Assembly: GCA_045569055.1 (NCBI GenBank)
Contig: JBJKZT010000013.1
Location: 16,087 to 80,086 of the forward strand
Reading direction: 5' to 3'
DNA: 64,000 nt
DNA from: Fidelibacterota bacterium
GTDB taxonomy: Bacteria; Fidelibacterota; Marinisomatia; Marinisomatales; TCS55
Position numbers and translations under genes: made by a program. Positions 37,276 to 64,000 of the stretch are shown in pieces (the first letter of the stretch is position 1; each line of letters starts with the position of its first letter). Under the pieces are notes generated by a model. The model worked only from the letters and a program-made list of their open reading frames with translations. It was not told the origin of the DNA and did not search any database.

Positions 37276-40200
37276 TTATTTCAGTAAGACCATTTTTCGA
37301 GTCTTCACAAAGTCTTTTGTTTGCAATTGATATAAATATAATCCAGCCCCTGCTGGGTTGCCCAAATCATCCATTCCATTCCAAGTAATATTATGTCGCC
37401 CCGCTTCCATATTACGGTTAACAAGTGTAGCTATCTTTTGCCCCATCAACGTATAGATATTTATTTTCACTAACCCTGTTTTTGGAAGACTATATTGTAT
37501 ACGTGTAGTGGGGTTAAATGGATTTGGGTAGTTTTGGCTCAAACTATATTCATCGGGAATTATTGATTCATCCACTGATAGCGCTGCATATTTCCCAATA
37601 ATTAACACAACTCTTTCATCCGTCGAATAAACAGTATCAATTCCATCCGTAACGTCTACTTTCCAAGTTAAAATACCTCCAGGACTTAAAAATTGATCTA
37701 GCTTTTCAAGAATATCAAAATATGGAATAGATAATCCTGGATAGTTCAAGTTTCTATTTTCAATGTAATTAATTTTTTCATTATTTATACTGATCATATT
37801 TAGTTCATATTCAAAAAGATATGTTAATTCATTATTATCTACATCATTAGAAAAGTCCCAATCAAATTTTACATTTGAAGTATCTTTATTTAGTATAGTA
37901 ATAGTTATCTCACTACTATCTGTTGGACTAATTAAAGTAACAGGATTTGGCGGATCATTTACAGGTTCTACATTGATTAAGATTATTCCCTCTTCACTTT
38001 CAGATATAGTATCATTAACCTTAAATCCAAAATTTCCATGCTTATCACCATAACCATCTTTAGCTGATATGTAGATAACTCTATGGCTGCTATCAGTTAC
38101 AATAGTTTGAAGCACATTGATCGTATCGCCCCTTGAGATTCCATCACTGGTCTGAAATAAATAACCGTTAATTGGTAACTTTGAAATTTTGTATACTAAT
38201 GAATCACTAATATTTGTAGCACCTGTTAAAGTAATTGTCACATCAATATCTTCAGTGGCAACTATATTTTGAGAGAAGGCCTCTGCACCATCAGCTTTTG
38301 ATAATACATTAACTGTGACAATCTTTTCTTCAGAATATTCTTTTCCATCATGTGCTTTAAAACCAAAATTTCCATGTCCATCACCATAACCATCTTTAGC
38401 TGATACATATATAATTCGATTTGTATCAGTAATAGCAGTAGGAAATGATTGAATGGTATCACCTCTTGTTATTCCATCACTAGTCTGAAATAGATAACCA
38501 TTAATGGGAAGAGTTGAGATAGAAAAACTAAGCGTATCACCATCTACATCTGATCCTTGAAGCAAAATAGTTTTATCTATATCCTCATCAGCAGTTATTG
38601 TCTGTGATAAGGAAGTAGGTTTATCATTTACATTAATAACATTTAATATGATTATTGCTTCTTCAGAGTCAGATATACCATCACTCGCATTAAATCCAAA
38701 ATTTCCATAATTAATACCATTTTCATCTTTTTCCGATATGTAGATAACCCTATTGCTGCTATCGGTTACTATAGTTGATAGCACATTGATTGTATCGCCC
38801 TTTGAAATTCCATCACTGGTCTGAAATAGATAACCATTGATAGGTAGTGATGTGATCTTATAAAATAATGTATCACCATCTGGATCTGTTCCCATCAATG
38901 TGATGATTTGATCTAAATCTTCATTAGCAGTTATAGTTTGAGATATAGCAATAGGTAATTGATTAAGTTTTTCAACATTTACTACAACTATTGTTTCCTC
39001 AGATTCATTAGTTCCATCAGTCACTTTAAAACCAAAATTACCATGTCCATCACCATAACCATTTTTAGCTGATACATAGATCACTTGATGATTTTCACTT
39101 ATAATAGTAGTGGGTATTGACTTGATGGAGTCACCTCTTGTGATTCCATCGCTGGTCTGAAATAGATAACCGTTAGAAGGAAGTATAGAAATGATATATG
39201 TTAGAGCATCTTCCTCTATATCTGTTCCAGCTAATGTAATGGTTTTATCTATATCTTGATCAGCAGTTACAGTTTGAGATGTAGCTTCATTATTTTCTGG
39301 TTGTGAGTTTACATTTAAAGTAACGACCGCTGCTCTAGAATCAGCTGTACCATCATTAACTTTAAATTCAAAATTCCCATGTCCATCACCATAACCATTT
39401 TTAGCTGATACATAGATCACTTGGTGGCTTTCATTACTAACAGTCGTCGGGATTGACTTAATGGAGTCACCTCTTGTGATTCCATCACTAGTCTGAAAAA
39501 GATATCCGTTAGAGGGCAGTTTAGTAATGATATATGTTAGAGCATCTCCATCTGGATCCGTACCTGCTAATGTAATAGTTTTATCTAGATCTTCATCAGC
39601 AGTTACAGTTTGAGGTGTAGCAATACCAATATTTAATGGTAAAATATTTATATTTGCATAAAAAACTGGACTTGATGAAAAATCATCATTGATTTTAAAT
39701 CCAACTTGAATTGATCCTATGTAATTACTTTCCGGTGTTATTGAATTTTCATTTACTGTATAATTACTCCCTGGATCAATTGTTAACTTCAAATTAGAAT
39801 CTGGAATACTATCGTTATCTAAAAATTGAAAATCATTTAACGTGAATTCATATTTTTGGTTCTGATCAAGATCCTTAACATTACATTCATTTATAATGGG
39901 ATCTTTATTATATACAAAATTGAAAAGCCTATTGGGATTATCATATCCACTTATAGGTATAAAATTAGTTCCAACCCATCCAGAATGACTTACTTTATTC
40001 CCCAAGCTATCTACTTCCACAAAAATTTGATCTGTGCTTGCATCCCATAGTTTTAAAATAAAATCATCTCCATTGTTCATTCCTTCATCAACTTCAGTAG
40101 TTAATGGATCATCACCATACAAAACAAAATTACTTTCATTAACTCCAAACCTAATTTGACCAAAACTATTTACAAGAGACGTTGAACCAACTGATGTAGA

Positions 40201-42237
40201 GCTAGTATCGAATGCAGCTACCCAATCACCAACAGATGCATTATTACCATTCAATGTCACAGAACCTTGGATAATGCCTCCAATATTTGTTTTAATAGGT
40301 ATAAAATTATCTGGCCTAATCTTATTAACAGTTACTTTGAAAGTCGTTGAAACTGTATTGATACCACCATTACTGCTTCCTCCGTTATCACTTACAGTTA
40401 TAGTCAATTTGGCAGTACCAATCATATCTGGAACGGGTTTAAATGAAATCGTACCACTAGTATCTGGTGATGTATATGTCACTGTGGGATTTGGAATCAA
40501 ACTTGTATTATCGCTGGTGGCTATTACAGTCAACGTCTGATTGACGTGGAAGTCACCATCGGCAACCCCCGTAAAGCTAACGGTGCGATCACCAGAATCT
40601 TCATCTATAGATATATTTGGTAGACTCTGATTAATAAGCGGTTGTGTATTAGCTGCTGAGATTAGAGAGTTTTCATAAGCACCAATATCTGGATTGTTTC
40701 CTGTGGGCCTAGAATTACTATTAAAGTCCAAACTTACTGGTATTGAAGCAGGTGAATAAGAAGCATCATTAGTACCATATCCTATGGCAGGTGAGTTATC
40801 TTTTAAAGTGAAGTCATTTAATATCACATTTGAGAATAAAGGCTCTGTATCAAAATTAGAATTATCTGTATCAATAGCATCATTATTCTCTGATTTTTCT
40901 ATACTAGATAGACTCTCAATGATTGAGTTTTTTGATTCAAATCTTCCTGCTGTCGTTCCTGCGCTCCCAAAAATAATTTGATTTATTGCACCATTATTCC
41001 AAATAATTGAGTTATAAAAATATATTTTGGATCCAGTATTAGAATAAATCGTAGCATTTAAAGCCGCAGTGTTTTTAGATATAGTTGTATGATAAATTTT
41101 AACAGTGGAAAGGTTGTTTGAATAAATTGCACTTCCATTTTGAGTTGCAGAATTATTAACCAAAAGACTATTAATAAGATTTAATTCTACAGTTGGTTTA
41201 TCAGCAAAAATGGCACCACCATTTATTGATGAATTACTTTCAAATAATGATCTCTCAATTATAGGTTTTGCCTCAAAAATATATGCCCCACCTCCATATT
41301 TATCCGCAGTATTATTTTTGATTGAAACATCATACAACTCAATTTTATTTTGGGATCTAGTTATATATAAACCTCCACCATTAACTGCTGCATAATTATT
41401 TCTTATTTTTGTATTATACATTTTTACAATCCCACTTGTTGTACCACCAATATATATTCCGCCACCATTATTAGCTTGATTTGAGTTGATATCTAGTCTT
41501 TTAATAATATGTGTTGCTGCACCAAGCTTTGCAGGACTTGAAATACCCCCACCAGTGCCAGCTTTATTATTAACAATTAAAATACTATCTAATGATACGT
41601 CAGACCTCCCATTAAGATATATTCCACCGCCATAACCAAAATTAAATGCTTTACCATTATTAATAATCACCGAACTATCAAGGAAGGCATCACTATACTG
41701 ACCAAAATAAATACCTCCTCCATATAAATTATTTGCACTAATTGAATTAGCATTATCTCTGATTATCAAATGTTTTAATGAAGGACTAGCTGATTTTGTA
41801 TATATACCACCTCCATATCTAATATTACTCATCAACAAACCGTTGCCATTTTGCAAAGTAAAGCCTACAAGTTTTGCTGATGATGTTTCACCTCCAAGGA
41901 AAGTAACTACTGAGGCACTATCACTATTTGTTGGAGAGCCGCCATCAATGATTGTCTGAGAAACATAACTTTTATCACTGGTAGTAAGGGTAAGCGATCC
42001 AATGACGATATCCTTACCTCTGAAATTGATGTTTTCCGCGTATGTGCCTACTGCCACCAAGATGGTATCTCCGCTAGACGTATTGGCATGTTCAATGGCA
42101 TACTGTATTGTCTTGAATGGGCTTCCAGATGAACCATCCCCATTGGTATCAGAACCAACATTTGATACATTAATCTGTTTTCCAAATACAAGATTCAAAC
42201 TAAGAAATAGAAATAAGATTATCGTTTTGGGAATCAT
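37276..42237 (-). CDS. Giant T9SS-sorted surface protein: parallel beta-helix, Ig/cadherin-like domains, five 112-aa tandem repeats and a CTD
   Basis: 1653 aa with a signal peptide. The N-terminus has SPFKTIQYAIEHA...GTY and many GGGIY beta-helix rungs. Contains FYNSIIWNN...DPLF..DF.L...SPAIG, a choice-of-anchor-Q-like motif. The repeats read TAD(E/Q)D(L/I)DK.ITL.GTD.DGD.L.Y. The C-terminus is SQNYPNPFNPTTRIQYSLPK...IYTLMGQK. Confidence 0.8.
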   Translation of the reverse strand: MIPKTIILFLFLSLNLVFGKQINVSNVGSDTNGDGSSGSPFKTIQYAIEHANTSSGDTILVAVGTYAENINFRGKDIVIGSLTLTTSDKSYVSQTIIDGGSPTNSDSASVVTFLGGETSSAKLVGFTLQNGNGLLMSNIRYGGGIYTKSASPSLKHLIIRDNANSISANNLYGGGIYFGQYSDAFLDSSVIINNGKAFNFGYGGGIYLNGRSDVSLDSILIVNNKAGTGGGISSPAKLGAATHIIKRLDINSNQANNGGGIYIGGTTSGIVKMYNTKIRNNYAAVNGGGLYITRSQNKIELYDVSIKNNTADKYGGGAYIFEAKPIIERSLFESNSSINGGAIFADKPTVELNLINSLLVNNSATQNGSAIYSNNLSTVKIYHTTISKNTAALNATIYSNTGSKIYFYNSIIWNNGAINQIIFGSAGTTAGRFESKNSIIESLSSIEKSENNDAIDTDNSNFDTEPLFSNVILNDFTLKDNSPAIGYGTNDASYSPASIPVSLDFNSNSRPTGNNPDIGAYENSLISAANTQPLINQSLPNISIDEDSGDRTVSFTGVADGDFHVNQTLTVIATSDNTSLIPNPTVTYTSPDTSGTISFKPVPDMIGTAKLTITVSDNGGSSNGGINTVSTTFKVTVNKIRPDNFIPIKTNIGGIIQGSVTLNGNNASVGDWVAAFDTSSTSVGSTSLVNSFGQIRFGVNESNFVLYGDDPLTTEVDEGMNNGDDFILKLWDASTDQIFVEVDSLGNKVSHSGWVGTNFIPISGYDNPNRLFNFVYNKDPIINECNVKDLDQNQKYEFTLNDFQFLDNDSIPDSNLKLTIDPGSNYTVNENSITPESNYIGSIQVGFKINDDFSSSPVFYANINILPLNIGIATPQTVTADEDLDKTITLAGTDPDGDALTYIITKLPSNGYLFQTSDGITRGDSIKSIPTTVSNESHQVIYVSAKNGYGDGHGNFEFKVNDGTADSRAAVVTLNVNSQPENNEATSQTVTADQDIDKTITLAGTDIEEDALTYIISILPSNGYLFQTSDGITRGDSIKSIPTTIISENHQVIYVSAKNGYGDGHGNFGFKVTDGTNESEETIVVVNVEKLNQLPIAISQTITANEDLDQIITLMGTDPDGDTLFYKITSLPINGYLFQTSDGISKGDTINVLSTIVTDSSNRVIYISEKDENGINYGNFGFNASDGISDSEEAIIILNVINVNDKPTSLSQTITADEDIDKTILLQGSDVDGDTLSFSISTLPINGYLFQTSDGITRGDTIQSFPTAITDTNRIIYVSAKDGYGDGHGNFGFKAHDGKEYSEEKIVTVNVLSKADGAEAFSQNIVATEDIDVTITLTGATNISDSLVYKISKLPINGYLFQTSDGISRGDTINVLQTIVTDSSHRVIYISAKDGYGDKHGNFGFKVNDTISESEEGIILINVEPVNDPPNPVTLISPTDSSEITITILNKDTSNVKFDWDFSNDVDNNELTYLFEYELNMISINNEKINYIENRNLNYPGLSIPYFDILEKLDQFLSPGGILTWKVDVTDGIDTVYSTDERVVLIIGKYAALSVDESIIPDEYSLSQNYPNPFNPTTRIQYSLPKTGLVKINIYTLMGQKIATLVNRNMEAGRHNITWNGMDDLGNPAGAGLYLYQLQTKDFVKTRKMVLLK
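37942..39618 (-). repeat. Five in-frame tandem repeats of 336 nt (112 aa) inside the 1653-aa gene
   Basis: The units begin TPQTVTADEDLDK, TSQTVTADQDIDK, ISQTITANEDLDQ, LSQTITADEDIDK and FSQNIVATEDIDV. An identical run of at least 46 nt occurs at 39041..39086 and 39377..39422, exactly 336 nt apart. Confidence 0.85.
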
Positions 42238-45200
42238 TTATTTTAAGAATATTAATTTTTTAACAGATTGAAAATCAGGTGTTTCCATACGATAGAAATA
42301 CATCCCAGATGCAATCTGTTTACCCCATTGATTTCTCCCATTCCAATTGACTGAATACCGCCCCGGGGCAGAGACCTGTTTTACCAGTGTTTTGATCTCT
42401 CGGCCCATTAAGTCATATATAATAATGGAAACGGGTCCATCCTTAGGAAGATCATACCGAATGGTAGTAATCGGGTTAAAGGGGTTAGGATGGTTTTGGT
42501 ATAGGGCAAATGTAGTTGGTAAAAAGGTATCATAATCTAGACTTACATCATGGAATGACATGGAGTTAAACTGAACGTGGGATGCAAGTGTATCACCATC
42601 ATAAACAAATGATATGTTTCCCCCAGCTTTAAGCCCATCAATCTCCTCAGTGGTCACATCATCACCATATACTGCCGAGTTTTGTAAATACCCACCTTCA
42701 GTGATTATTGCCGCACCAACAACAGTATTATCCTCGGAAAGTACCTTAACCCAATCCCCTACATTATACCTACCCATGATCTTTCCTTTGACAAACATAA
42801 AAGATGGATTAGGCTTGACTTCGGGATGGTTTACAGGATTGTTGGTTGCGATCTTTCCGACTGCACCACCTTGGGTCTGTGCCGGAAAGGTGAAGTTGGT
42901 AACCGCTGCGTTGACTTTTACCCAGTAACCTTTTGTAGGCTTCAAAGTACTTAGAGTACTGGATTGCGGTGCATCAGGATCATACACTAAGGCACCTTGC
43001 GTAAAGCCGGTGACATACTGAAGCGTATTTGAAGCAATAAGACTTTCAAAGGCTTTGTCCACCGCTAATTCATAATCAGGAGAATAGGCAATCATGTTCC
43101 AGCCAGCTGATAAAGAAATTGTTTTATCATCTGATCGCTTGCCTCGAAAGAAAATTTTATTCAACGGGCCGTTTAATTTTAGATAATAGCCTTCTTTCTT
43201 ATTTATTCCATTTAATGTAGAAAATGGATCTCCTGGCTTAAAGTAACCGTTTGGACTAGTGATATATTCAAGCAAACCTTTGCTCAATAAACTCCTGAAT
43301 AATTTTTTAGGGCGCTTACTTGTACTATTGAAAGGAATAGAAATCAAGTTCCACTCTTTTTCTAGTGGTATGTCATATGAAACAGACAAGCTGTCCTTAG
43401 AGAATGAAAGACTGGGCCAAGCACTTTTATCAGGGATATAAGGCAATCTCCACCTGTATTTACCGTAACTAGTGACTAATAATTTCTCGCTAGTATAGAA
43501 TGATACACTATCATCAGGGTTCAAGGATCCAAGTGCAAAAGAGTACTCACCATTATTTTCAATCAACGAAGTTAAATCAAACTTTATTAACTGACTTTCC
43601 GTGATTGAAAAGACTGTATCAATTGGAGTCAATAGGCTCTTGTCAACAAATCCAATATTCTTACTATTAAATGATTCATTCCAGCCCTTATAATCATATG
43701 TATAAAGTACAATTCCTCCGCTCATAGAATATTTTTTATACGGCATAAGGTTAAGTTCAATTTTATAACTATTATTAATTGAATTAGGCATATCAAAACG
43801 CATGAACGATAATCGATTTTTTGATACCACCATTAAACTATCTGGCTGTTTTAGTTTAATGCCAGTTACTGTCGTATCTATTGAAAGATCGTTTAATGGG
43901 TACAAGCGATCTTTCACAGTAAATTTCCATGTGGGGCTTGATACCCCGTCAACAGTTACGCTCCAATGATAGGTGCCTCCAGGTTCGAAAGTCTCAAATA
44001 GCACATTATTGGGATATTGAAATGTTTTAGTTCGGTTTACACCTGGCCCTGATATGGTTAACGTAGCACTTACATTGGTATAATCTTTTTTATATGGATA
44101 GTTAAAAGCTATACCATATTCCAAAGAGATGTCTGTTGCTCCATCGCTAGGTATGGGTACACTGGGATATGAATATCGATAGCCCGGGATCCAATAAGCC
44201 GAATCTCCATATTCATACGGGCCGATGTCCGGTGCCTCACCAATAAATTTTCGGTTTTGACCTGAGAAGGAAGGTGCGTGATTATAGGTTTTATCTGTGC
44301 CATCATTTATACCTTCAATGATAATCCCACCATCAATAAGAGCTGAACCTTTTTTGGGCCTAAAATCGTAATTTTGAATTTTGTTTTTTATTGGAGCAAC
44401 CCCGTGCTCATCTAATAGGTTTTGATCAGAATATGCTTTATTTGTATTCCAAGGATTTTCCAATTCACCATCAAGTTGGTAATAAGGAGCGCCATTTTCA
44501 TTAGATTCAATACCTCGTCGTCTATTATTGAATCTTGTGATATTTCTTAAGTAATAAATCCCTGAGGAGTCTAATTGAGTAGGGCTTTTAAATGCTCCTT
44601 TTTCAGGCAGACAATTCAAAGCCATACATTCAAAATCAATACTAACCGCAGAATTTTTTATTTTGGAATTTGCATTGCCTACTGCTGATGGGGTTTTTTT
44701 GTCAATTCCCTGATATTTATAATCAGGCAAGCTTATATCTGTCCTTTTACTATCATTTGCCAACACGTGTTGAACATCATGCCAATCTCCCTTTAGTCGC
44801 AACCCACGACTATTTCCAACACTGACCACATGATGCATATCTGCGTGATGACCGCTTGCCGTACTGTTCCACCGAATACCATTCCAGCGTGGAGCGTTGA
44901 TAACCCAAGAATATCTGGTCGTAGATGAATCGGTTGCAAAACCATTTCTTTGTATTCCGCTGCCATCACCATAATCAAATATATTTTCAATACGTATGTA
45001 TTCTAACAAAGATCTAATACCCCCAAAAATACCTGCACTGTTGCTATTCATTACGGTGATATAACGCCATGTGTCTTGCCCAAATACCATTTCCCCACCT
45101 ACACCTCTATAGTTTCTCGTTGAGGTCACATAATGATGGGAACCTGAGAACCATGAATGTTTTGTAAAAAGAATATTTTCCATTGTGGCATACATATGCC

Positions 45201-46875
45201 GTGTGTGAGATAGAGGCGGGGCATTATTACTATTTTCAAATACTAAGTTTTTCCACAAACTATATTCACCAAGAATAGTTCCATTCCTTATTTTATCCGC
45301 CCACATATCCGTGCTGAAAGTAAACTTTGAATCTTCTACTGTTAAATAATCACAGTCGTAAGCATGGAGAGGTCCAGAAAAAATATGAAGATTCCTAAAC
45401 TCCATATTATCAGATTCTTGCATTAAAATTAATCCTACTTTTGTTCTTATTCTGACATTATTCTTATCAGGAATAAACCCAACGCTTGGATATAAATAAA
45501 GGGTGCTTTTACCAGGATCAAATGACCATTCTTCAAGAGTATCTAGGAATGCAAGCTCACCTCCACGATAACCTAAATCGTAACTTGTTTCAGACCCAAA
45601 TTGTTTGGTTACAGGTGAATGTATGGTAATACCTTCGCCCTTGTTTGCTCCATATTTATAAATTGATGTTGGTGAGCTATCATCAATACCTCTTGGATCA
45701 CCATTAATTGAGTCTGTTGGATTTTTAAAATTCACTGGCATTGCCATCATCATGTAACGGTCATTTACAAAAACACTATAAACCGAATCCATTCTAACTC
45801 CATAGCGATATGACAATGAATCAAAATCAATCACTGTTTTATATATATTATGACCATTATGATTGTAGGGTACCCATTCAGTATCCAATGGAATGGTGCC
45901 ATCAATAATAACATTCTCACCTGGGTATCCTTCTATCTTCACATCATTTAATTTATATCTCGTTATATACTCTGAATGTCGACCCCCTTTGATAAGAACA
46001 CGATCTCCAGGTTCTGCATCATCCAGGGCACTATTGATCGTAGGATAGGGACAGTTTACTGTACCATCTGGTTTACTACATTCGTTTGAGAAAAACCTCT
46101 GCATCACATTGACATTTTTTATGATACCGTGGTTCTGATTAGGGCTTAGATCAATCAATTGATAGTCACCATTTATATCCATGGGATAATAAGCGACCAA
46201 ATTCGTTTCAGCACCAGACAAACGAGTGTTCATATTATTTTTTATTTCGGATTCACTCCTGGCTACATCCCACATTCTTACTTCATCTATACTTCCTTGA
46301 AGATTTAAGCCTATATATTTTATAGGCGTTTTAAAGGGTGTTTTTCCAGCCGCCCCAGTATATGTATGAATTTTATTTCCATTCACAAATAAAATATAAT
46401 TGGTACCATCGAATGTTACTGCTATGTGGTACCAGCCCGGTGTTGCAATAACATCCTTAGCCTGATAATTGGTCCAAGTGTCGTCACCAGCAGCTCCAAA
46501 TCCATACTGTATACCTGTACCATATCCAATTAATTTCACTGTTGGAGAAATGTCATTTGCTTTTGGGCCTGTTGGCGTGTACCCTATAATTTGTTGCGTA
46601 ACATTTCCCTTTTGGTCAGAATATATCCAGGCTTCTTGAGTGAATGTAGAGCCTAATATAATTGCTTTGGATGAAATATCAATTGTATCAGGAGTTGCTC
46701 CAGGATTAGCTATAAAATTTTTTTGTTCCTTATTCACATCAAAAGAATCAAATCGTAGAAAATTATCTTTTTGATATTTTATTAAAGTAGTTTTATCAAC
46801 TATCAAATCATCTGCAAAAAGAATCGTTATTGAACTAAGGATGATGTGAATAAATAGTTTATTCATTTTATTCAT
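42238..46875 (-). CDS. Giant T9SS-sorted surface protein: LamG/ConA-like lectin domain, beta-helix-like region and a CTD
   Basis: 1545 aa with a signal peptide. Contains a LamG-type segment (WYHIAVTFDGTNYILFVNG...IDEVRMWDVARSESEI...LVAYYPMD) and NYDFRPKKGSALIDGG. The C-terminus is YQNHPNPFNPITTIRYDLPKDGPVSIIIYDLMGRE. Its stop TAA (42238-42240) abuts the ATG of the next gene (42237). Confidence 0.75.
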   Translation of the reverse strand: MNKMNKLFIHIILSSITILFADDLIVDKTTLIKYQKDNFLRFDSFDVNKEQKNFIANPGATPDTIDISSKAIILGSTFTQEAWIYSDQKGNVTQQIIGYTPTGPKANDISPTVKLIGYGTGIQYGFGAAGDDTWTNYQAKDVIATPGWYHIAVTFDGTNYILFVNGNKIHTYTGAAGKTPFKTPIKYIGLNLQGSIDEVRMWDVARSESEIKNNMNTRLSGAETNLVAYYPMDINGDYQLIDLSPNQNHGIIKNVNVMQRFFSNECSKPDGTVNCPYPTINSALDDAEPGDRVLIKGGRHSEYITRYKLNDVKIEGYPGENVIIDGTIPLDTEWVPYNHNGHNIYKTVIDFDSLSYRYGVRMDSVYSVFVNDRYMMMAMPVNFKNPTDSINGDPRGIDDSSPTSIYKYGANKGEGITIHSPVTKQFGSETSYDLGYRGGELAFLDTLEEWSFDPGKSTLYLYPSVGFIPDKNNVRIRTKVGLILMQESDNMEFRNLHIFSGPLHAYDCDYLTVEDSKFTFSTDMWADKIRNGTILGEYSLWKNLVFENSNNAPPLSHTRHMYATMENILFTKHSWFSGSHHYVTSTRNYRGVGGEMVFGQDTWRYITVMNSNSAGIFGGIRSLLEYIRIENIFDYGDGSGIQRNGFATDSSTTRYSWVINAPRWNGIRWNSTASGHHADMHHVVSVGNSRGLRLKGDWHDVQHVLANDSKRTDISLPDYKYQGIDKKTPSAVGNANSKIKNSAVSIDFECMALNCLPEKGAFKSPTQLDSSGIYYLRNITRFNNRRRGIESNENGAPYYQLDGELENPWNTNKAYSDQNLLDEHGVAPIKNKIQNYDFRPKKGSALIDGGIIIEGINDGTDKTYNHAPSFSGQNRKFIGEAPDIGPYEYGDSAYWIPGYRYSYPSVPIPSDGATDISLEYGIAFNYPYKKDYTNVSATLTISGPGVNRTKTFQYPNNVLFETFEPGGTYHWSVTVDGVSSPTWKFTVKDRLYPLNDLSIDTTVTGIKLKQPDSLMVVSKNRLSFMRFDMPNSINNSYKIELNLMPYKKYSMSGGIVLYTYDYKGWNESFNSKNIGFVDKSLLTPIDTVFSITESQLIKFDLTSLIENNGEYSFALGSLNPDDSVSFYTSEKLLVTSYGKYRWRLPYIPDKSAWPSLSFSKDSLSVSYDIPLEKEWNLISIPFNSTSKRPKKLFRSLLSKGLLEYITSPNGYFKPGDPFSTLNGINKKEGYYLKLNGPLNKIFFRGKRSDDKTISLSAGWNMIAYSPDYELAVDKAFESLIASNTLQYVTGFTQGALVYDPDAPQSSTLSTLKPTKGYWVKVNAAVTNFTFPAQTQGGAVGKIATNNPVNHPEVKPNPSFMFVKGKIMGRYNVGDWVKVLSEDNTVVGAAIITEGGYLQNSAVYGDDVTTEEIDGLKAGGNISFVYDGDTLASHVQFNSMSFHDVSLDYDTFLPTTFALYQNHPNPFNPITTIRYDLPKDGPVSIIIYDLMGREIKTLVKQVSAPGRYSVNWNGRNQWGKQIASGMYFYRMETPDFQSVKKLIFLK

Positions 46876-47006: not shown

Positions 47007-47174
47007 TTATTTTAAATAATAAGCTATACACAAAAATCTTTATATATGAATGGAATACGGGGGTTGTATCCACCAAAACCGTATCCACTTTTAGTATATG
47101 TTAGGTATATGTCTGAATACTTCTGATTAAACACAATAAAAAACCCCCAGTCGTGAAACAAGGGGTTTTAGTCG

Positions 47175-47247
<73 letters not shown>

Positions 47248-47296: not shown

Positions 47297-47764
47297 TCAA
47301 ACGGGTTTTGGAAAGAATTCAAACTGATATTTCTGACGATAAAAAATTAAAAAACCTAAAATTAAATAACCTATATCTCTAACAACAGTCACTAAGCCTA
47401 TCTTATCACCTTCTGTAGCTGAAGCAGCTGCTGATGATACAGAGAAACATCCACATTCTATACTAATACCTCTTGCTAGTGCCTGTGAGATTGCAATTAT
47501 AAACATTATATTCATTAGTATTATCATAATTGCTGCCCCATCTACCATAATTCCTGCAATAATAAAAATTCCGGTTAATAATTCTAGCCATGGTAAGATT
47601 AAAGCCAGTAAATTTTCGAGCCCAAATGGTAAGACATGATAATTTCCTATTGCAGCTGCAAAATCTCCTGGGTTAGAAATTTTATCTAAGCTTGCTAAAA
47701 TAAAGACTCCTCCTAGTATAAGTCTTGCTAATAAGATGACAGGGCCTTGTAATAAATAATTCAT
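47297..47764 (-). CDS. MauE/DoxX-family redox-associated membrane protein
   Basis: 155 aa, 4 TM. Has the MauE-like N-terminus LLARLILGGVFILASLDKISNPGDFAAAIGNY and the Cys pair ISIECGCF. Its start overlaps the rhodanese stop (ATGA). Confidence 0.6.
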   Translation of the reverse strand: MNYLLQGPVILLARLILGGVFILASLDKISNPGDFAAAIGNYHVLPFGLENLLALILPWLELLTGIFIIAGIMVDGAAIMIILMNIMFIIAISQALARGISIECGCFSVSSAAASATEGDKIGLVTVVRDIGYLILGFLIFYRQKYQFEFFPKPV

Positions 47765-48243
47765 TTACCAACCTCACTAGGATAATTAGCTTTAGACCAT
47801 TCTAACCAACCACCCTTAAAAACATATAATTTTGTAAAACCCATATCTTTAAAATCATAAGCTAATTGTTCACTGTCACCACAACCTGGATCCCCACAAT
47901 AAACTACTAAGGGGGTATTTTTACTTTGTTTTTCCTCAATGTTAAAAATAAGTTCAAAAAGAAAAATATTTTTCATCGCACCTTTGATATGACCAGCTTC
48001 ATAATACGCTTCATCTCTAGCATCTACAAATAAGACACCATCATCAAAAAAATCTTTAGCTTGTTCTAACGATATTGCTGCTAAGATTGGTTCATCAGAG
48101 TCAGTCTCAACCTGATCTACAATAGCTAGCTCAACTGCAAACCAAGGTATTGGTTTACTACTAATAATATTTGAAGTAATGCCGATAAATATAGAAATAA
48201 GGACTAATAATATTGCCTGAACAATAGGTAATCTTATGTTCAT
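47761..48243 (-). CDS. Membrane-anchored rhodanese-domain protein
   Basis: One N-terminal TM helix, then a rhodanese fold with FVDARDEAYYEAGHIKGA, active-site loop VVYCGDPGCGDSE, and GGWLEWSKANYP. Confidence 0.8.
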   Translation of the reverse strand: MNIRLPIVQAILLVLISIFIGITSNIISSKPIPWFAVELAIVDQVETDSDEPILAAISLEQAKDFFDDGVLFVDARDEAYYEAGHIKGAMKNIFLFELIFNIEEKQSKNTPLVVYCGDPGCGDSEQLAYDFKDMGFTKLYVFKGGWLEWSKANYPSEVGK

Positions 48244-49379
48244 TAAGGCAAACTAGCGCTTTGTTTATCTAAAGACTCGCAAGTTTTCAATGTTTGATCA
48301 ACTAAAGATAATAATTTCTTTTCACTTGATACATTTCCATTAAGAGCAATCAAACTATAAAATGAAGTATTAGAATACTTATCTATTGAACTTTCTGACT
48401 CTTTTAAGCCATTCCTGAATTTTTGAATCATATTTAATACGTTAGAATTATTTTTATAAACATCTTCTAGTGGCTTATCAGGATTTCTTTTTTGAAGATT
48501 GTTCAATCTCTCATTAAATAAATCAACAGTCATCATTGAACCTGTTATATCATTTATAGGTTTATTTTTGTCAACTAATTTTAGATCAACTCTACCAAGA
48601 TATTTACCCTGAATACCTGTGCCGTAAAGCATTGGGTTGCCATCTGCTTGTTTTCTTTCTGGTCGCGTTCGACTTGTTTCTCTGCTAGAAAAAATATAGT
48701 CTACATTTTTAGTTTGAGAAACCAATTTATCCAATTGTAATTTATTTGCATTAATTAACATTACTAGGACGTCCACTTGAGGACGTAATTCTTCTACTTT
48801 TGAATTTATAACTGTGAGTGCATCTTTAAGCTCAAGCTCTTTTGCAGAAGCTGGAAGACTAGATAAAATACCAAAAACACCAACTTTTATTCCATTTCTT
48901 TCAATAATAGTATGACTTTTAAAAGCTAGATCATCCGTTCCAGCATTAACGATATTTGAAGAAATAAAATTATTATTTGCTGATATTTCTAATTGCTTTA
49001 AAAAATCTAAACCTGCAGCAAAATCATTATGGCCAACATTATATATATAATTACCCATTTTTGCTGTGGATTCGAAGACAGTTTTAGCTCTGAGCTTTGA
49101 AGAGGCTTCTTTTCCATTTGCTAAAATATTCAATTCAAAAAGTGCGTCACCTGCATCTAATAAAACTGGATCAACGCCACCTTCTCTAAGTTGATTTATA
49201 TAAGTTAATCTTCTAGGCAGACCGCCTAGTGGATTAGCTTTTCATCCACAAGGGTCAAGCTGACCCCGAACATTTGTTGTAACCAACATTGTTAACTGCT
49301 CGGAAGTAGGTACTTTTTCAGAGCATGCCATTATTGAAAGTAAAAAAACAAAGAATAATACAGATTTAGTTTTAAACAT
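48243..49379 (-). CDS. UshA/5'-nucleotidase-like lipoprotein with one in-frame UGA (candidate selenocysteine at codon 46)
   Basis: The track ORF (48243..49133) lacks the N-terminus. The same frame upstream reads ATG(49379) MFKTKSVLFFVFLLSIMACSEKVPTSEQLTMLVTTNVRGQLDPCG-TGA(49244..49242)-KANPLGGLPRRLTYINQLREGGVDPVLLDAGDALFELNILANGKE. It has a lipobox and calcineurin-fold remnants (LDAGD, VGHNDF). A SECIS-like hairpin follows the TGA. Confidence 0.6.
49207..49235 (-). promoter_or_regulatory. Putative bacterial SECIS stem-loop
   Basis: The mRNA reads AAUC-CA-CUAGGC-GGUCU-GCCUAG-AA-GAUU and begins 10 nt after the U of the UGA. It has a 4-bp lower stem, a 2x2 internal loop, a 6-bp upper stem and a GGUCU apical loop. 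Confidence 0.6.
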
Positions 49380-49414: not shown

Positions 49415-49732
49415 CTACCCACCTGATGGTTTTGCAATATGACCATCTTTGCTTAATAGTGAAATTACAATTTCTCTAACATTTCCTTGAAGAAGAATTT
49501 CACTATTTTTAACACTACCACCAATACCACATTTTTTCTTAATTAAAGTTGCATATTCTTCTAATTGATTACGATTACCTTTAAATCCCTTAATAATTGT
49601 GACAACCTTACCTGCTTTACGTCTATCTAAATGAATTCTTAGATCTTGTTTAATAATTGAAGACTGACTATTTGAATCAGTTTTATCTATTTCAAAAGAA
49701 TCATCTGTTGAATAAACAATATTATTTTTCAT
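49415..49732 (-). CDS. yciH: SUI1/YciH-family translation initiation factor-like protein
   Basis: 105 aa. The segment RIHLDRRKAGKVVTIIKGF...KKKCGIGGSVKNSEILLQGNVRE matches the SUI1 fold signature. Confidence 0.8.
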   Translation of the reverse strand: MKNNIVYSTDDSFEIDKTDSNSQSSIIKQDLRIHLDRRKAGKVVTIIKGFKGNRNQLEEYATLIKKKCGIGGSVKNSEILLQGNVREIVISLLSKDGHIAKPSGG

Positions 49733-49775: not shown

Positions 49776-50375
49776 TTAGTTAGTTAAAACTCCAAAAGTC
49801 AATGACCAGGCAAATGCCATAATGATAATCAATTCACTGAAGATTGCACCACCAAAAAAAAGTATTGCTCTTCGCATATGTTTGTTTTTGTATGCGTTAA
49901 TATGGCCCAGGGCAAATAATTGAGCAGAGAACATTTTAAATGTATTATCATTATCTTCAGTCATTTCAGCTAAATATGATGCATACTCAACTGGATTTTT
50001 AAATTGAACAATTCCTCCAAAAAAAGTAGCATTTATATCTGGAAGATCTTCATGATTCATGTCATTACGAATTCGAGGAACGATAACCAACATTAAGTTT
50101 ATCAGACCAAAGGTTGCATTTAAAAAATAAATTAAAATCATTACAGCACCTATCATATTTATCTGCTGTCCATCCATCACCTTAGGAAAGTGAACGATAA
50201 AGAAGACCATAAAAGCAGCGAGTAATGACATTAAAGTAAAAGCTTTTTGATCTGTTCTTTGTAGAATCAATTGTTCACTTTGAAGAATTTGGAAAATAGG
50301 CGCAACATTACTACGCACATTACGTGAACTAAATTCTGGTTCTTCTGGTGGAGTGATAGGTTTTTGATCTGACAT
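49776..50375 (-). CDS. DUF5706/Pycsar-effector-like two-to-four-TM membrane protein (tentative)
   Basis: 199 aa. Shows the pattern ...LILQRTDQKAFTLMSLLAAF..(TM)..(TM)..IVPRIR...ATFFGGI...EY....QLFALGHINAYKNKHMR..(TM), as I recall it for that family. Confidence 0.4.
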   Translation of the reverse strand: MSDQKPITPPEEPEFSSRNVRSNVAPIFQILQSEQLILQRTDQKAFTLMSLLAAFMVFFIVHFPKVMDGQQINMIGAVMILIYFLNATFGLINLMLVIVPRIRNDMNHEDLPDINATFFGGIVQFKNPVEYASYLAEMTEDNDNTFKMFSAQLFALGHINAYKNKHMRRAILFFGGAIFSELIIIMAFAWSLTFGVLTN

Positions 50376-53366: not shown

Positions 53367-53439
<73 letters not shown>

Positions 53440-53474
53440 CTTATTTCCTACTATCAATTCCTGCTTTCAATTAT

Positions 53475-55679
53475 TTATCTATTTTTTAAATTAACACTAA
53501 AATAATCAATCATTTTTTTGTATAAATTTTTACGTGCATTTCCTCCACTCATTCCATGTGGTCTATTTGGATAATAGAAAACATCTAATTGTTTATCATG
53601 TTTAATAAATTCTTCAACAAGCCAAGTAGTATTTTGAGAATGAACATTGTCATCTCCGGTTCCATGAATTACTAATAACTTTCCTTTAAATCTATCAACA
53701 TATGATAAAACGGATGTTGAGTCATATCCGTCTTTATTATCTTGAGGTAGTCCCATTGATCTTTCAGTATAAATTGAATCATATAGTCGAAAGTCCATTA
53801 CAGGTGCAACAGATACACCAACATCAAAAAGATGAGCATTTTTAGTAAGCATTAGACCTGTAAAATAGCCTCCTCCAGACCAACCCCATGCTCCTACTCT
53901 TTTAGGGTCAACAATTCCTTTATTAATTAAGTATTCAACACCTGTAGCAGTATCTTTTGCTAAATATTTTGACATATCTCCATAACTTAAGTTTTTAAAA
54001 GCTTCCCCCCTTCCACTCATACCTCTAGCATCCATTGAAAAAACTACATATCCTTGTTGAGCAAGATATTGATTCCATGTACTTCCCCAACGGTTATTTA
54101 CTATTTGTGTACCAGGCATTCCATAACCATAAACAATAACTGGATACTTTTTATTTTTTTTATAATCTGGAGGATAAGTGATTATTCCATCAAGTTTTGT
54201 TGTACCGTCACTTGACATAAAATGAATAATTTCAGGATAACTCCAATCATAGACTTCAAATTGAGATTTATCTGTCTCATTAATAATTTTTATTATATTT
54301 CCATCCATATCTTTTAGGACATGCTTAGATGGACTTGTTAAACTTGAATAAGAGTCAATAAAAGCGCCACCTTGAGGTAAAATTTTAACTGAGTGAGAGC
54401 CAGATTCATTTGTTAATAAATTTAATTCGGAGCCATCAAATTTGACTGAGTAAAACCGTGTTTCAAATACTGATTCTTTATTAGCGGTAAAATATATTTT
54501 TTGATTTGCTTCATCAATTTTTAATATTTGTTTTACTTCCCAATTACCATCAGTTACTTGATTGATTAATTTGCCATCATCTGAATGAATATAAATATGA
54601 TGCCAACCTGAACGTTCTGACTTCCAAACTATTCGACCATCATTTAAAAAATTATAATTTCTATGTAATTCAACCCAACCGTTTGGATCTGATTCAGATA
54701 ATCCAGATTTTGATTTTCCATTTTTTATATCAATGTTTAAAAAATCCCAACGATTTTGAAGACGATTCATTTTCATTACTTTTAGTAGCTTATTATCCAT
54801 CCATTTTATCCAAGGGTAGTATGTATCGTAATTATCTCCAATATCCATCTTTTTACGATTCCCTTTCTTTATATTTGAAACAAAAATAGACATTGTTGGA
54901 TTAGCTTCGCCTGCTTTTGGATAGTGAATTTCTTTAATTTTAGGATAAAGAGAAATTTCATCAAACATTGAAAAAATTGGAACTTTTGACTGATTTTCTT
55001 CCCAGTAAGCAATATGCTTACTATCTGGACTCCATCGGTAACCATCATATGAACCAAACTCTTCTTCATATACCCAACCTAAATGTCCATTAAGTATTGT
55101 TTTAGATCCATTACTAGTTATTCTTTTTTCTTTGAATCTTATTAAATCATAGATATAAATATTATTATCCTCACGAACATAAGACACATATTTACCATCT
55201 GGAGAAAATTTAGCGTTTCTAAGTTTTTCATTATTTTTAGATACTGATTGAATCTTTTTAGTTTTTAAATCCATTACATAATAACTAGCATAGAAAGACC
55301 TTCTCCAAATTTTTTCTTTGTTATTAATAAATAATATCTTTTCACCTTTTTTATCAAACCAAAAAGTTTTAGGTACAAAATTTTCGCTCCATGTGGTTTC
55401 TTCAGTTTTTCGTTTAGAAACAATTATAGCTTTATTCTTTAAACTAAAATCTTTTTCGGTTAAAAAAATTGATGTATCAGAATTCATTATATCAATTTCT
55501 AAAAGTATGTTTTTCTTTCTACTAATATATTTATTCTCATTTGGTACCCATGTTAAAATATTAAGCGAAGTATACTTAAATGGCGATTTCCCTTGAACAT
55601 CCTCAAATGATAAACGTTTAGGATTAGAGTAAAGTGACGTTATGATCAAAAATGGTATTAATATAAATTTTTTCATCAA
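53475..55679 (-). CDS. Dipeptidyl-peptidase IV (S9B prolyl oligopeptidase family)
   Basis: 734 aa with a signal peptide and an N-terminal DPPIV beta-propeller region. The nucleophile motif is GAWGWSGGGY, followed by the GTGDDNVH catalytic Asp/His region. Confidence 0.85.
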   Translation of the reverse strand: MMKKFILIPFLIITSLYSNPKRLSFEDVQGKSPFKYTSLNILTWVPNENKYISRKKNILLEIDIMNSDTSIFLTEKDFSLKNKAIIVSKRKTEETTWSENFVPKTFWFDKKGEKILFINNKEKIWRRSFYASYYVMDLKTKKIQSVSKNNEKLRNAKFSPDGKYVSYVREDNNIYIYDLIRFKEKRITSNGSKTILNGHLGWVYEEEFGSYDGYRWSPDSKHIAYWEENQSKVPIFSMFDEISLYPKIKEIHYPKAGEANPTMSIFVSNIKKGNRKKMDIGDNYDTYYPWIKWMDNKLLKVMKMNRLQNRWDFLNIDIKNGKSKSGLSESDPNGWVELHRNYNFLNDGRIVWKSERSGWHHIYIHSDDGKLINQVTDGNWEVKQILKIDEANQKIYFTANKESVFETRFYSVKFDGSELNLLTNESGSHSVKILPQGGAFIDSYSSLTSPSKHVLKDMDGNIIKIINETDKSQFEVYDWSYPEIIHFMSSDGTTKLDGIITYPPDYKKNKKYPVIVYGYGMPGTQIVNNRWGSTWNQYLAQQGYVVFSMDARGMSGRGEAFKNLSYGDMSKYLAKDTATGVEYLINKGIVDPKRVGAWGWSGGGYFTGLMLTKNAHLFDVGVSVAPVMDFRLYDSIYTERSMGLPQDNKDGYDSTSVLSYVDRFKGKLLVIHGTGDDNVHSQNTTWLVEEFIKHDKQLDVFYYPNRPHGMSGGNARKNLYKKMIDYFSVNLKNR

Positions 55680-59258: not shown

Positions 59259-59678
59259 TTACTGTATCTTTGGTTCAATTCTAGTTCTAATTATCCAAGG
59301 TGATTGGTAACCTTTTTTTATAATACTTTGCCTAAAATTTTCAGCTTTATTCCTTTCTATAAAATTACCGACACGAACCTTATAGTTAGGTGCTTCAAAA
59401 ACTATATATATTTTTTCATTTAAAATATTTGACAAATCTTTTTGTAATAGTTCAGCCTTAGACAATTGTTTTGTTGCTAATATTTGGACGCGGAATCCTT
59501 CAATAATAATTTGAGTTGAATCTATTGAAACTTTATTTTCTAAAATACTTTTAGATTCTAATGGTGAAATTATCATAGGCCATCTAGGTTCTGGATTATT
59601 AAGTTTGTCTGGATCAAACTTAATTTTTTTATCTTGCGCAATTAATAAAGTTGAAAATAAAATAAATAATATTTTCAT
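59259..59678 (-). CDS. SPOR-domain (peptidoglycan-binding) protein
   Basis: 139 aa with a signal peptide. The C-terminal GFRVQILATKQLSKAE...YKVRVGNFIERNKAENFRQSIIKKGYQSPWII matches the SPOR fold pattern. Confidence 0.65.
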   Translation of the reverse strand: MKILFILFSTLLIAQDKKIKFDPDKLNNPEPRWPMIISPLESKSILENKVSIDSTQIIIEGFRVQILATKQLSKAELLQKDLSNILNEKIYIVFEAPNYKVRVGNFIERNKAENFRQSIIKKGYQSPWIIRTRIEPKIQ

Positions 59679-60415
59679 ATTTTTCTCATATATTGATTGT
59701 TAACCCATCCTTTTTTACCATCAAGTAGTAATATTTCATACCATCTTGTTTCAGATGTTGTAATTTGTACTTTTGTTCCTTCATGTATTCTAAATAATAC
59801 ATTCTCACCCCTTGCTATTGGCGCTGAAAGAACATCAATTGAAGTTGAAATAACAATGGCTTCATCAATATCAGAAATATTCCAATATTTATCAAATGAA
59901 ATCCATATTAAAATTAAAAAGGATAATGTTAAAGTATAATTAAAAAAGATCTTTATTTTTTCATTTATAATGAAATATGATTTAATTAAATAGATTATTG
60001 AAATAGTAACGAAGAAAAACCCACCTAAAATTATAATATCTAGAATAGTTGTTTTATCTAAAACTGCTTTATATAATGAAAATAAGAAAAAATTATCTGG
60101 CGGTACAATTCTATCTTTTACTTGAGAACGCACAAAATTTAAATTATAAAGTATATCTTTATCTCTAGGAGAAATGGAATGACCTTTTTCATATGCCCAA
60201 ACTGCGTTACCTAATTCGCCCATTCTATAATAACTATTCCCAAGATTTAAGTACAGATGCTCATGAGTAAAATCTTTTTCTAATTCATGAAAATGATTAA
60301 CTGCATTTTCATATTCCTCACTTTCATAATAATAATTACCTAATTGAAATAAAGAATCAGCATTTTGAGATGATGATATTGAAAATAGCACTAAATTTAT
60401 AATTATAAATTTCAA
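59675..60415 (-). CDS. batE: BatE-like TPR plus SH3-like membrane protein
   Basis: 246 aa with a TTG start. It has TPR repeats, a TM region, and a C-terminal SH3-like WYEILLLDGKKGWVNNQYM. It holds the last position of the bat operon. Confidence 0.5.
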   Translation of the reverse strand: MKFIIINLVLFSISSSQNADSLFQLGNYYYESEEYENAVNHFHELEKDFTHEHLYLNLGNSYYRMGELGNAVWAYEKGHSISPRDKDILYNLNFVRSQVKDRIVPPDNFFLFSLYKAVLDKTTILDIIILGGFFFVTISIIYLIKSYFIINEKIKIFFNYTLTLSFLILIWISFDKYWNISDIDEAIVISTSIDVLSAPIARGENVLFRIHEGTKVQITTSETRWYEILLLDGKKGWVNNQYMRKI

Positions 60416-60428
60416 GATAAAGCCTTAT

Positions 60429-62144
60429 CTATTTTTTTAATAAATTAATTGCTTGATCTTTTAAAGTTGAAAGTTGTGTATCTGCTTGGGGACCAAATCG
60501 TCCAGCATCACAAATCTTTGTAATAGAAATAATCTCTTTAAGAAGAGAATTATTAATTTTTCCTTTAAGCTCAGATTCAATTGTAAGTGGATCTAAATTT
60601 TCAGTTGATAAAAATAATTTTGATTGAAAGTATTTATAAAGGACTAATGAAGTTAAGGCGAATGGATCGTCAGTAGATTTTGATATTTGTTTTATAGCTA
60701 TTTTAAGCGCACCTTGTGACTGTCTTTGGCCATATGTTGATAAACGATTTGCTTTAAATCTCGATAGAAAAGTTGGAAATATATATAGAGTAGTTGCAAA
60801 AACATAAGTGCCCCAAACCCAAATTGGAATTGACCTTTCACCTTTTGAATAAAATTTAGGTGTTAAAATTTTAATATGTCTTATATCATTACCTAATAAA
60901 GAAATGTCCTCTTTATTAAATTGAGTTGAAGCAATATTTGTTTTATCTCCAGGATTAATTGTTAAAGGCAATGGCTCAGATCTTGAAATTATAAATTTTT
61001 CTAGAGTCGGATCAAAATATGTCAGCTTAACTGGTTTTAATATAAATTGTCCAGAAATTCTAGGTATTAAAATATATTCAAAATTTAGTTCACCAGTAAT
61101 ATCATCTCTGAATTCATTTCGCTTAAAAGAAGAAGTTGGGGGAAATACTTCCATGTTTTGTGGAAAATCTATACTATTAATATTGAACTGATTAAGATTA
61201 CCTGTTCCTTTCAGTTCTACTCTGAAAGTAATAGCTTCATTGATTTTAACAATTGATGTATCTATCATGGAAGAAATTTGAAATTTACCAACTGCTCCAC
61301 TAAAATCTGATGGGGGAGAATTTGGATATTTGTTAACCATAATATTTATCGAGTCAGATTGAATAAATTGACGCTTAGTCTCTTTAAACATTGAATTAAA
61401 GAAAGCATCATTAAAAGGGTTTTTTGATTTTCCACGAGAAGGTATTTCTACATTACATATTGCTGTCATTGGAGCAATAATTAAGTTACCAGTTTGAGTA
61501 GGAAATAAAGCTGATTTATATAATGTAGCAACTTTATAGTCTACACCATTTATTTTAGTATTATTAAAACGTATAGTTTGAGCAACACGGAGGTCTTCAT
61601 TCCAAAAACCAGTACTCTTAGGATATTCAATATCTTCAATTGATAGATTAAGACGTGTAAATAAACGATAAGTTACAGTTATCTGTTCTCCTGGAAATGC
61701 TTCTTCTTTATCTGCTTTTGCTTCAATGAAGAGATTAGCCATCTGAGCTCGGCCAGCACCTTTTTCTACCGAAATGCCAATTGGATTAGTTTTAAAAACC
61801 TTTTTTTGAACAGTTACGTTTAAACTTGGTATATTAATTTTTCCATCATTTTTAGCTAGTAAAGTCCAAGTTAAACTTCTTGAACTTGTCATAGCGCCAT
61901 TAATCCATTGGATATTTGTTTGTTGAGCTGGTCCGCTTATAATTTTAAAATCTTTTAATATGGGAGAAATATCTACGCTTGGAGTACCATCTGCGTTAGT
62001 AGCTACTATTTTTAAGCCTAACGTTTCATTTTGCGAAATACGATTAGCATCAACCGAAGCTGCTACAATTGTTTGAGAAAAAGTAAAATTGAACAGTAAT
62101 AGTAGTAAACTAATAAAGTTTTTATATTTCTTAACCATTACCAA
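60429..62144 (-). CDS. batD: BatD-like oxygen-tolerance protein
   Basis: 571 aa with a signal peptide, repeated beta-sandwich regions, one late TM helix, and a position between the TPR genes. Confidence 0.65.
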   Translation of the reverse strand: MVMVKKYKNFISLLLLLFNFTFSQTIVAASVDANRISQNETLGLKIVATNADGTPSVDISPILKDFKIISGPAQQTNIQWINGAMTSSRSLTWTLLAKNDGKINIPSLNVTVQKKVFKTNPIGISVEKGAGRAQMANLFIEAKADKEEAFPGEQITVTYRLFTRLNLSIEDIEYPKSTGFWNEDLRVAQTIRFNNTKINGVDYKVATLYKSALFPTQTGNLIIAPMTAICNVEIPSRGKSKNPFNDAFFNSMFKETKRQFIQSDSINIMVNKYPNSPPSDFSGAVGKFQISSMIDTSIVKINEAITFRVELKGTGNLNQFNINSIDFPQNMEVFPPTSSFKRNEFRDDITGELNFEYILIPRISGQFILKPVKLTYFDPTLEKFIISRSEPLPLTINPGDKTNIASTQFNKEDISLLGNDIRHIKILTPKFYSKGERSIPIWVWGTYVFATTLYIFPTFLSRFKANRLSTYGQRQSQGALKIAIKQISKSTDDPFALTSLVLYKYFQSKLFLSTENLDPLTIESELKGKINNSLLKEIISITKICDAGRFGPQADTQLSTLKDQAINLLKK

Positions 62145-63869: not shown

Positions 63870-64000
63870 ATTTTTCTTCTGAAAAGAGTTCTGTCTAATG
63901 TTTGACCACTTAAACCAAGTATCAAAGCCGGAATTAAAAACCAACCAAATAATTCTTTATATTGAGTGAATTCTTTTATTTCAATTTCTGTTCTTTCTAG
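63866..64000 (-). CDS. batA: BatA-like VWA protein, C-terminal 44 codons only (the gene continues past the window end)
   Basis: My translation is LERTEIEIKEFTQYKELFGWFLIPALILGLSGQTLDRTLFRRKI*. It ends in a terminal TM helix and basic tail, as in BatA proteins. Confidence 0.55.
   Translation of the reverse strand, partial: LERTEIEIKEFTQYKELFGWFLIPALILGLSGQTLDRTLFRRKI

Follow-up and report, generated by a model that had tools for sequence, protein, structure and literature searches.

The UshA-like selenoproteins, a family filed under COG0737 and marked by a CxU motif, have been known since 2008, when Zhang and Gladyshev (PLoS Genet 4:e1000095, PMC2398784, Table 2) reported 76 selenoprotein sequences in 20 Global Ocean Sampling (GOS) samples together with 92 Cys homologues, counting the family as previously described and listing it as one of the 20 major marine selenoprotein families. 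Two reviews (PMC9312934 and PMC13188914) also list it, one of them giving the NCBIfam accession NF041198, and no functional assignment was found in the published accounts of the family. The gene described here lies on the minus strand, at 49379..48243, of a 64,000-nucleotide (nt) stretch of DNA from a Fidelibacterota bacterium (contig JBJKZT010000013.1, positions 16,087 to 80,086), referred to below as the window. It is very probably one intact gene, encoding a selenocysteine (Sec) lipoprotein of the UshA-like CxU/PCGU family from marine Marinimicrobia (SAR406/Neomarinimicrobiota). An earlier sequence-only reading of the window had proposed a probable selenocysteine lipoprotein at this place and implied that it was new; the novelty does not stand, the family being already published (PMC2398784) and modelled in NCBIfam (NF041198).

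The supplement of PMC2398784 contains 71 sequences with 'DPCGU', among them JCVI_READ_114950 (...LLTTNVRGQLDPCGUKANPLGGLPRRLTYINQIKQSG...), which shares 60% identity with the window protein across 289 amino acids (aa) (E 1e-125). This GOS supplement does not contain the N-terminal strings of the window protein in exact form; only 60%-identical members are found there. Both belong to the same family and the same marine subfamily, with an identical block TNVRGQLDPCGUKANPLGGLPRR, whereas the paper is read-based and comes without organism, operon context or full-length gene. Concerning the NCBIfam model NF041198 ('UshA_like_PCGU'), it matches the window protein with E 2.4e-58 and 198 bits over model positions 2-385, and the two share the P-C-G-U motif and a homologous UshA-like domain; in contrast to the model, the window protein has no cytochrome c but a helical C-terminal region, and the partners in Marinimicrobia are a rhodanese and a MauE/DoxX protein. 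With the family long in the literature and in NCBIfam, the scientific addition is small; the Marinimicrobia-wide conservation, the loss of metal ligands and the rhodanese and MauE/DoxX operon, presented below, were not found in published accounts of the family.

Other described systems serve as references for single parts of the locus. For the RNA, this is the selenocysteine insertion sequence (SECIS) of E. coli fdhF, whose loop is the 4-nt GGUC and whose stem contains a bulged U. For the neighbouring genes, it is the DoxX-SseA-SodA system of M. tuberculosis, where, as relayed in PMC7907618, a DoxX protein joins with a rhodanese-type sulfurtransferase in a membrane thiol oxidoreductase complex (Nambi 2015).

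Reading frame, TGA codon and SECIS hairpin

Translation of the minus-strand frame 49379..48243 gives 378 codons, whose sole interruption is a TGA at 49244..49242 that follows directly on Asp-Pro-Cys-Gly (MFKTKSVLFFVFLLSIMACSEK...TNVRGQLDPCG-TGA-KANPLGGLPRRLTYINQ...), which reproduces the frame with a single TGA after Cys-Gly claimed from the letters alone. The coding sequence (48243..49379) comprises 378 residues including Sec46, an assignment based on translation, homologues, NF041198 and an AlphaFold2 (AF2) model; Cys44, Gly45 and Sec46 (TGT GGA TGA) occupy 49242..49250, and the stop codon TAA at 48245..48243 overlaps the start codon of the rhodanese gene. Listing of open reading frames (ORFs) with translation table 11 splits the frame and yields only a 45-aa ORF (49242..49379) and a 296-aa ORF (48243..49133) with a TTG start codon, so that the gene is indeed hidden by ORF truncation, as had been stated. 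In this organism TGA does not serve as a general sense codon, again in line with the earlier claim: among the 44 window ORFs of at least 120 aa, which add up to about 18,900 codons, 6 terminate in TGA, and in-frame TGG is found 297 times, at 32% GC.

One genome per GTDB species was scanned for orthologues, which gave 34 loci with 31-87% identity, almost all labelled Marinimicrobia or Neomarinimicrobiota, and a set of 35 sequences with the window; the codon entropies given below refer to these 35, the stem pair counts to 31 distinct sequences, and the lipobox and Cys44 counts to 34 full-length orthologues. At the Sec column the DNA codon is TGA in 34/34 loci as well as in the window (35/35), and Cys44 is conserved in 34/34. 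The block around the Sec codon, NVRGQLDPCG-U-KxNPLGGLxR, is the best-conserved stretch of the protein, being invariant in an 11-sequence alignment and near-invariant over the 35 sequences. A protein search returned 164 relatives: the full-length ones (377-399 aa, 36-99% identical) all display 'W' at the TGA column, and those called with the standard code reach only 210-330 aa. Since the DNA reads TGA in all loci, the 'W' of the databases is a gene-caller artefact that arises from the use of a TGA=Trp table.

The column which the sequence-only reading had proposed to check for Cys or Sec holds TGA in 35/35 sequences and Cys in the distant homologues P0104-P0107 and P0109, which are 23-25% identical and read C-G-C. 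By this comparison it is a classical Sec/Cys pair. Proteins P0104-P0109 carry Pfam cytochrome families, the Cys forms among them being multihaem cytochrome c fusions. P0108, which has a cytochrome domain and comes from a high-GC source, shows W-G-R in place of C-G-U and is therefore without either chalcogen residue.

Public records hold the gene in a Trp-at-Sec form, in ENA, JGI and Logan calls made with the TGA=Trp table (P0001-P0046), and P0001-P0046 together with P0051, P0052, P0055 and P0061 are the proteins among which the gene appears in wrong forms. NCBI records of metagenome-assembled genomes (MAGs) show shortened products of 210-330 aa, named 'hypothetical protein' or '5'-nucleotidase family' (NCBI/JGI). 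One high-GC relative, locus L034, sits in a bin labelled 'Enterobacterales' and is probably mis-binned; its copy at 9899-11248 (+) retains both EPCG-TGA-KANPLGGLPRR and the same GGCGGTCTGCC hairpin, and has a long Pro/Ala-rich C-terminal tail.

The mRNA directly 3' of the TGA folds as AAUC/CA/CUAGGC-GGUCU-GCCUAG/AA/GAUU. From folding and alignment, the SECIS element spans 49202..49240 on the minus strand and is built from a lower stem, internal loops, a conserved 6-bp upper stem and the loop GGUCU, the conserved core lying at 49213..49229 and the loop at 49219..49223. Taken by itself, the fold energy of this one sequence is only modestly unusual, with a minimum free energy of -14.7 kcal/mol for 49190-49250 (-), z = -2.64 against dinucleotide shuffles, and 5 of 200 shuffles equal or better. 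Hence, the significance of the hairpin derives from comparative data and not from single-sequence fold energy. Pairing of the 6-bp upper stem holds in 31/31 distinct sequences, which, like the TGA in 35/35, goes far beyond chance, and the third pair of this stem (columns 24/36) occurs as AU in 12, GC in 10, GU in 6, UA in 2 and UG in 1, broken in 0/31, both partners of this covarying pair being synonymous third positions, one of a Leu and the other of a Pro codon. The codons of the loop and stem top, Gly52 (GGC), Gly53 (GGT) and Leu54 (CTG), have a codon entropy of 0, as compared with 1.1-1.9 bits for Gly and 1.6-2.2 bits for Leu at other conserved columns. These frozen codons therefore point to selection on the RNA rather than on the protein and, judging from the alignment, the hairpin is under RNA-level selection. 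Conservation in register across species does not extend to the lower stem, and an Rfam scan of the window at gathering thresholds reports tRNAs only and no SECIS family.

With the U of UGA as nt 1, GGUCUG falls at nt 22-27 and the GGUCU loop at nt 22-26. The E. coli fdhF sequence TGACACGGCCCATCGGTTGCAGGTCTGCACC..., which the earlier reading had quoted, matches annotated fdhF with at least 99% identity in 5,413 E. coli records, with 100% identity among the matches listed, and its GGTCTG lies at nt 22-27 too. The claim of an fdhF-like SECIS at an equal offset is borne out by this common position and by the stem paired in all 31 sequences. In both cases the hairpin lies just 3' of the UGA and has GGUCUG in its apical part. 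The differences are that the genes are unrelated, that the window loop has 5 nt (GGUCU) and sits on a perfect 6-bp stem, and that the lower stem of the window family is not conserved among orthologues.

The protein starts with a signal peptide and lipobox (residues 1-19, ...LSIMA-C19; 49323..49379, minus strand), with Cys19 present in 34/34 full-length orthologues, always closing the hydrophobic N-terminal stretch. This agrees with the lipoprotein signal peptide proposed earlier and suggests lipidation at Cys19. With TGA in 35/35, a SECIS selected at the RNA level, Cys homologues and a conserved lipobox, the proposal of a probable selenocysteine lipoprotein has held up, and a genuine selenoprotein gene, SECIS included, can evidently be recognised by reading the sequence alone. 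Following established Sec biology, SelB with Sec-tRNA(Sec) would bind the hairpin and insert Sec at UGA46, G23/U24 in the apical GGUCU loop being spaced from the UGA as they are in E. coli fdhF, and the product would then be exported and lipidated at Cys19.

Fold, lost ligands and operon partners

A profile of the family matches 5'-nucleotidases in the PDB (3ivd, E 8.7e-12) and UshA (1ush, E 3.7e-9). For the AF2 model the sequence of P0001 was used, a protein with 99% identity to that of the window and with Trp as residue 46; the model reaches a predicted local distance difference test score (pLDDT) of 89.3 and a predicted template modelling score of 0.85. Foldseek with this model finds 3ive with E 2.4e-16, prob 1.0 and a template modelling score of ~0.6, and 3ive, 1oie and 2ush all at E ~1e-16. 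At the level of a predicted structure, the N-terminal metallophosphoesterase fold of UshA and 5'-nucleotidases, which the sequence-only reading had named, is confirmed by both the profile and the Foldseek matches.

The active site of this fold is largely gone, since 5/7 canonical metal or catalytic positions are occupied by conserved residues of non-ligand type, with variation at a sixth. In the DxH motif, Asp is replaced by Asn36 (34/34) and His by Arg38 (32/34); the His of motif IV is Asn210 (34/35), and GHxH has become Arg233 ... Thr235. Motif III (GNH) is variable at 117/118, with the canonical Asn and His in 1/35 only. The sole retained ligand is Asp78 of motif II (GD), kept in 31/35. Residues 279-375 are modelled as long helices and one strand, and the protein lacks the nucleotide-binding C-terminal domain of 5'-nucleotidases. 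As compared with 5'-nucleotidase, UshA and SoxB, the calcineurin-like N-terminal fold and the motif II Asp are thus common, whereas the window family is without five of the seven ligands and without the C-terminal domain, and varies in motif III. Because the metal ligands are replaced, no Metallophos match is obtained and the C-terminal domain is missing, it seems very unlikely that the window protein is a phosphoesterase. The motif D42-P43-C44-G45-U46 is placed in the loop that follows beta-strand 1 of the UshA-like domain, so that Cys44-Gly-Sec46 comes directly after this strand, beside the former metal site. No CXXCH motif occurs in the window protein or in the 8 orthologues checked.

Two genes follow on the same strand, translationally coupled to the selenoprotein gene. 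The first (47761..48243, minus strand) codes for a membrane-anchored rhodanese-domain protein of 160 aa (PF00581, E 2.8e-15) with the membrane anchor at its N terminus, its start overlapping the selenoprotein stop. The second (47297..47764, minus strand) overlaps the rhodanese gene by 4 nt and codes for a MauE/DoxX-family membrane protein of 155 aa (PF07291, E 3.4e-24, together with PF07681). The rhodanese has the invariant residues C116 and C121 (YCGDPGC) and the MauE/DoxX protein an invariant C104-G-C106, and all three proteins of the operon each bear one conserved pair of chalcogen residues. A weak match relates the rhodanese to the NCBIfam family 'rhodanese_LYCAU (seleno)protein', with Asp where that family has Sec. 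Synteny with the selenoprotein gene is found for the rhodanese in 27/34 loci and for MauE/DoxX in 26/34, down to 32% selenoprotein identity. A tRNA-Gly(GCC) gene (47174-47247, minus strand) stands directly past the operon and a tRNA-Ala(GGC) gene (53367-53440, plus strand) a few kb upstream; these two bracket the operon in most related loci, which therefore represents a stable chromosomal neighbourhood.

The pairing of a DoxX/MauE membrane protein with a rhodanese-type sulfurtransferase is what this operon shares with DoxX-SseA-SodA of M. tuberculosis, as far as that system is described in PMC7907618. The window operon differs in having no SodA, its third member being the Sec lipoprotein, and the analogy covers the partners only.

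Proposed function and alternative readings

From its context, the flexible loop Cys44-Gly-Sec46 beside the former dimetal site would be the reactive centre of the protein, either as a CxU pair forming a selenenylsulfide or as a Se/S ligand. A selenenylsulfide redox centre at Cys44/Sec46, in other words a redox role of the motif, is plausible. Together with the co-transcribed partners it could belong to a periplasmic thiol/selenol or sulfane-sulfur redox relay, in which MauE/DoxX would act in the membrane, the rhodanese as carrier and the CGU loop of the lipoprotein as reactive centre. The task of the rhodanese and MauE/DoxX pair would fall, in the relatives with a cytochrome fusion, to their multihaem cytochrome c; the fusion of the distant Cys forms to cytochrome c points to electron transfer. 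The full picture, in which a 'dead' phosphoesterase scaffold has been rebuilt around Cys-Gly-Sec as part of a three-component relay whose partners are interchangeable with a fused cytochrome, is put forward tentatively, and we would sooner doubt it than rely on it. If true, the relay would give a family that ranks within the 20 most abundant selenoprotein families of the surface ocean its first functional assignment. The operon and the ligand loss offer, in any case, a lead that can be tested, though it is speculative as yet, on what this abundant marine selenoprotein does.

The same residues may have a different role. The protein may be a genuine selenoprotein in which Cys44/Sec46 form a metal-binding or Se/S-carrier site instead of a selenenylsulfide couple, for example with a Se/S-ligated metal replacing the lost dimetal centre. 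The position of the motif just after the degenerate motif I and the retained motif II Asp78 would suit such a site, as would the co-transcribed rhodanese, typically a persulfide or selenium carrier, and the thiosulfohydrolase SoxB is the best canonical relative by NCBIfam score (61.8 bits). However, the selenoprotein literature counts CxU and CxC among redox motifs (PMC2398784, PMC13188914), and paired cysteines are present in both operon partners. The sequence data do not separate this role of the CGU loop from a redox relay; we rate the metal or carrier site as possible, though on the unlikely side.

Several results weigh against the reading as a Sec lipoprotein acting in a relay. Neither the 64-kb window nor the ~420 kb flanking the gene in the 34 related loci yielded selA, selB, selD or a tRNA-Sec. 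Scans with family libraries took in 27 of the 44 window ORFs of at least 120 aa, the other ORFs and all flanks being covered by one tblastn. This tblastn, run over the window and all loci with E. coli SelA, SelB and SelD queries, gave no matches, which is weak evidence of absence; ARAGORN detected no tRNA-Sec in the window or the 34 loci, and 20 further large window ORFs searched against Pfam turned out to be transporters, peptidases, VWA/Bat proteins and others, with no SelA, SelB or SelD. When the window was scanned for ORFs split by one TGA, only this gene had a stable hairpin, so no second selenoprotein is seen there; on the 34 loci the same scan was noisy, its matches being dominated by the high-GC locus L034. 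Three SAR406 single-cell genomes are listed with SelD by Peng et al. 2016 (PMC5029168), and this 'orphan SelD' listing was all that was found in the literature on selenocysteine in Marinimicrobia, SAR406 or Marinisomatota. The Sec decoding machinery of this genome is, hence, assumed.

On the side of the protein, a Pfam scan of the full-length sequence, with Sec written as Cys, gives no match at all, neither PF00149 nor PF02872. In the AF2 model the CGU loop has pLDDT below 50, with Trp modelled for Sec, so its placement relative to the former active site is unreliable; such a low value fits a mobile loop. The score against NF041198 stays below the curated cut-off of 275 bits, and model positions 386-519 (of 519) are unmatched. 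This is because the window protein is without the cytochrome part of the model, and the scanned homologues at or near the cut-off (P0104, P0106, P0109) all have a C-terminal multihaem cytochrome c. On these sequence grounds the window gene is best placed as a member of the literature-defined family which falls outside the NCBIfam equivalog as calibrated. As the equivalog misses the Marinimicrobia form, annotation pipelines leave the gene unnamed, which explains the 'hypothetical protein' labels in GenBank MAG records.

As for the operon, six loci that form one clade (L008, L009, L010, L015, L016 and L018) show no downstream rhodanese or MauE/DoxX match in the sequence covered, and the genomic context of the Cys-form cytochrome fusions P0109 and P0106 contains no informative neighbours. 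The relay function is suggested by gene order and conserved cysteines.

Another possibility is that one of the standard amino acids Trp, Gly or Cys is inserted at the UGA, through codon reassignment (table 4 or 25) or near-cognate read-through, which we consider very improbable. The many database entries with W at the Sec column (P0001-P0046) and the failure to see Sec machinery in the window and flanks speak for it. That W, however, stems from gene calling with TGA=Trp, the DNA being TGA and not TGG in all loci, and the homologues carry Cys at this column, neither Trp nor Gly. The TGA-ended long ORFs (6/44) and the 297 TGG codons at 32% GC are incompatible with reassignment, and a genome-wide change of TGA was rejected on this basis. 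An fdhF-type SECIS at canonical distance and under strong RNA-level selection, as well as the SelD reported in SAR406 single-cell genomes (PMC5029168), also argue against a standard amino acid and for Sec.

The view that the TGA is a true stop, leaving a 45-aa signal-peptide-like ORF and a separate protein of 272-330 aa, or else that the gene is a pseudogene or an assembly error, is barely credible: table-11 calling does give 45-aa and 296-aa ORFs, and NCBI/JGI records do hold products of 210-330 aa, but the same TGA in 35/35 independent assemblies and species excludes an error or recent pseudogene, both of which were rejected, conservation is among the highest in the protein in the stretch that separates the TGA from any later start codon (K47-NPLGGLPRR...), the downstream ORF would begin in mid-fold without an export signal, and the annotated starts vary between records.

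Other features of the window

Upstream of the selenoprotein gene, a SUI1/YciH gene (49415-49732) adjoins a gene for a 199-aa membrane protein (49776-50375, minus strand) that matches PycTM, a Pycsar effector (Pfam E 7e-12). The PycTM-type gene is syntenic in most Marinimicrobia loci, with 53-89% identity, and looks like conserved housekeeping rather than mobile defence; no nucleotide cyclase was noticed beside it.

Past the operon, two giant ORFs lie next to each other on the minus strand, at 37276-42237 (1653 aa) and 42238-46875 (1545 aa). The tail of the latter (...FALYQNHPNPFNPITTIRYDLP...) resembles what we take to be the C-terminal sorting domain of type IX secretion substrates.

Two stretches, 15437-30648 and 53475-55679, are rich in peptidases, namely M28, M20 (two), an S10 carboxypeptidase, a penicillin amidase and DPP-IV/S9, and DUF885, DUF2891 and a DAO-type oxidoreductase are encoded near these genes. 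This richness fits a protein-degrading lifestyle. Towards the end of the window, a Bat-like run on the minus strand (59259-63944) includes BatD at 60429-62144 and a VWA-domain protein at 62844-63944, with small ORFs around them.

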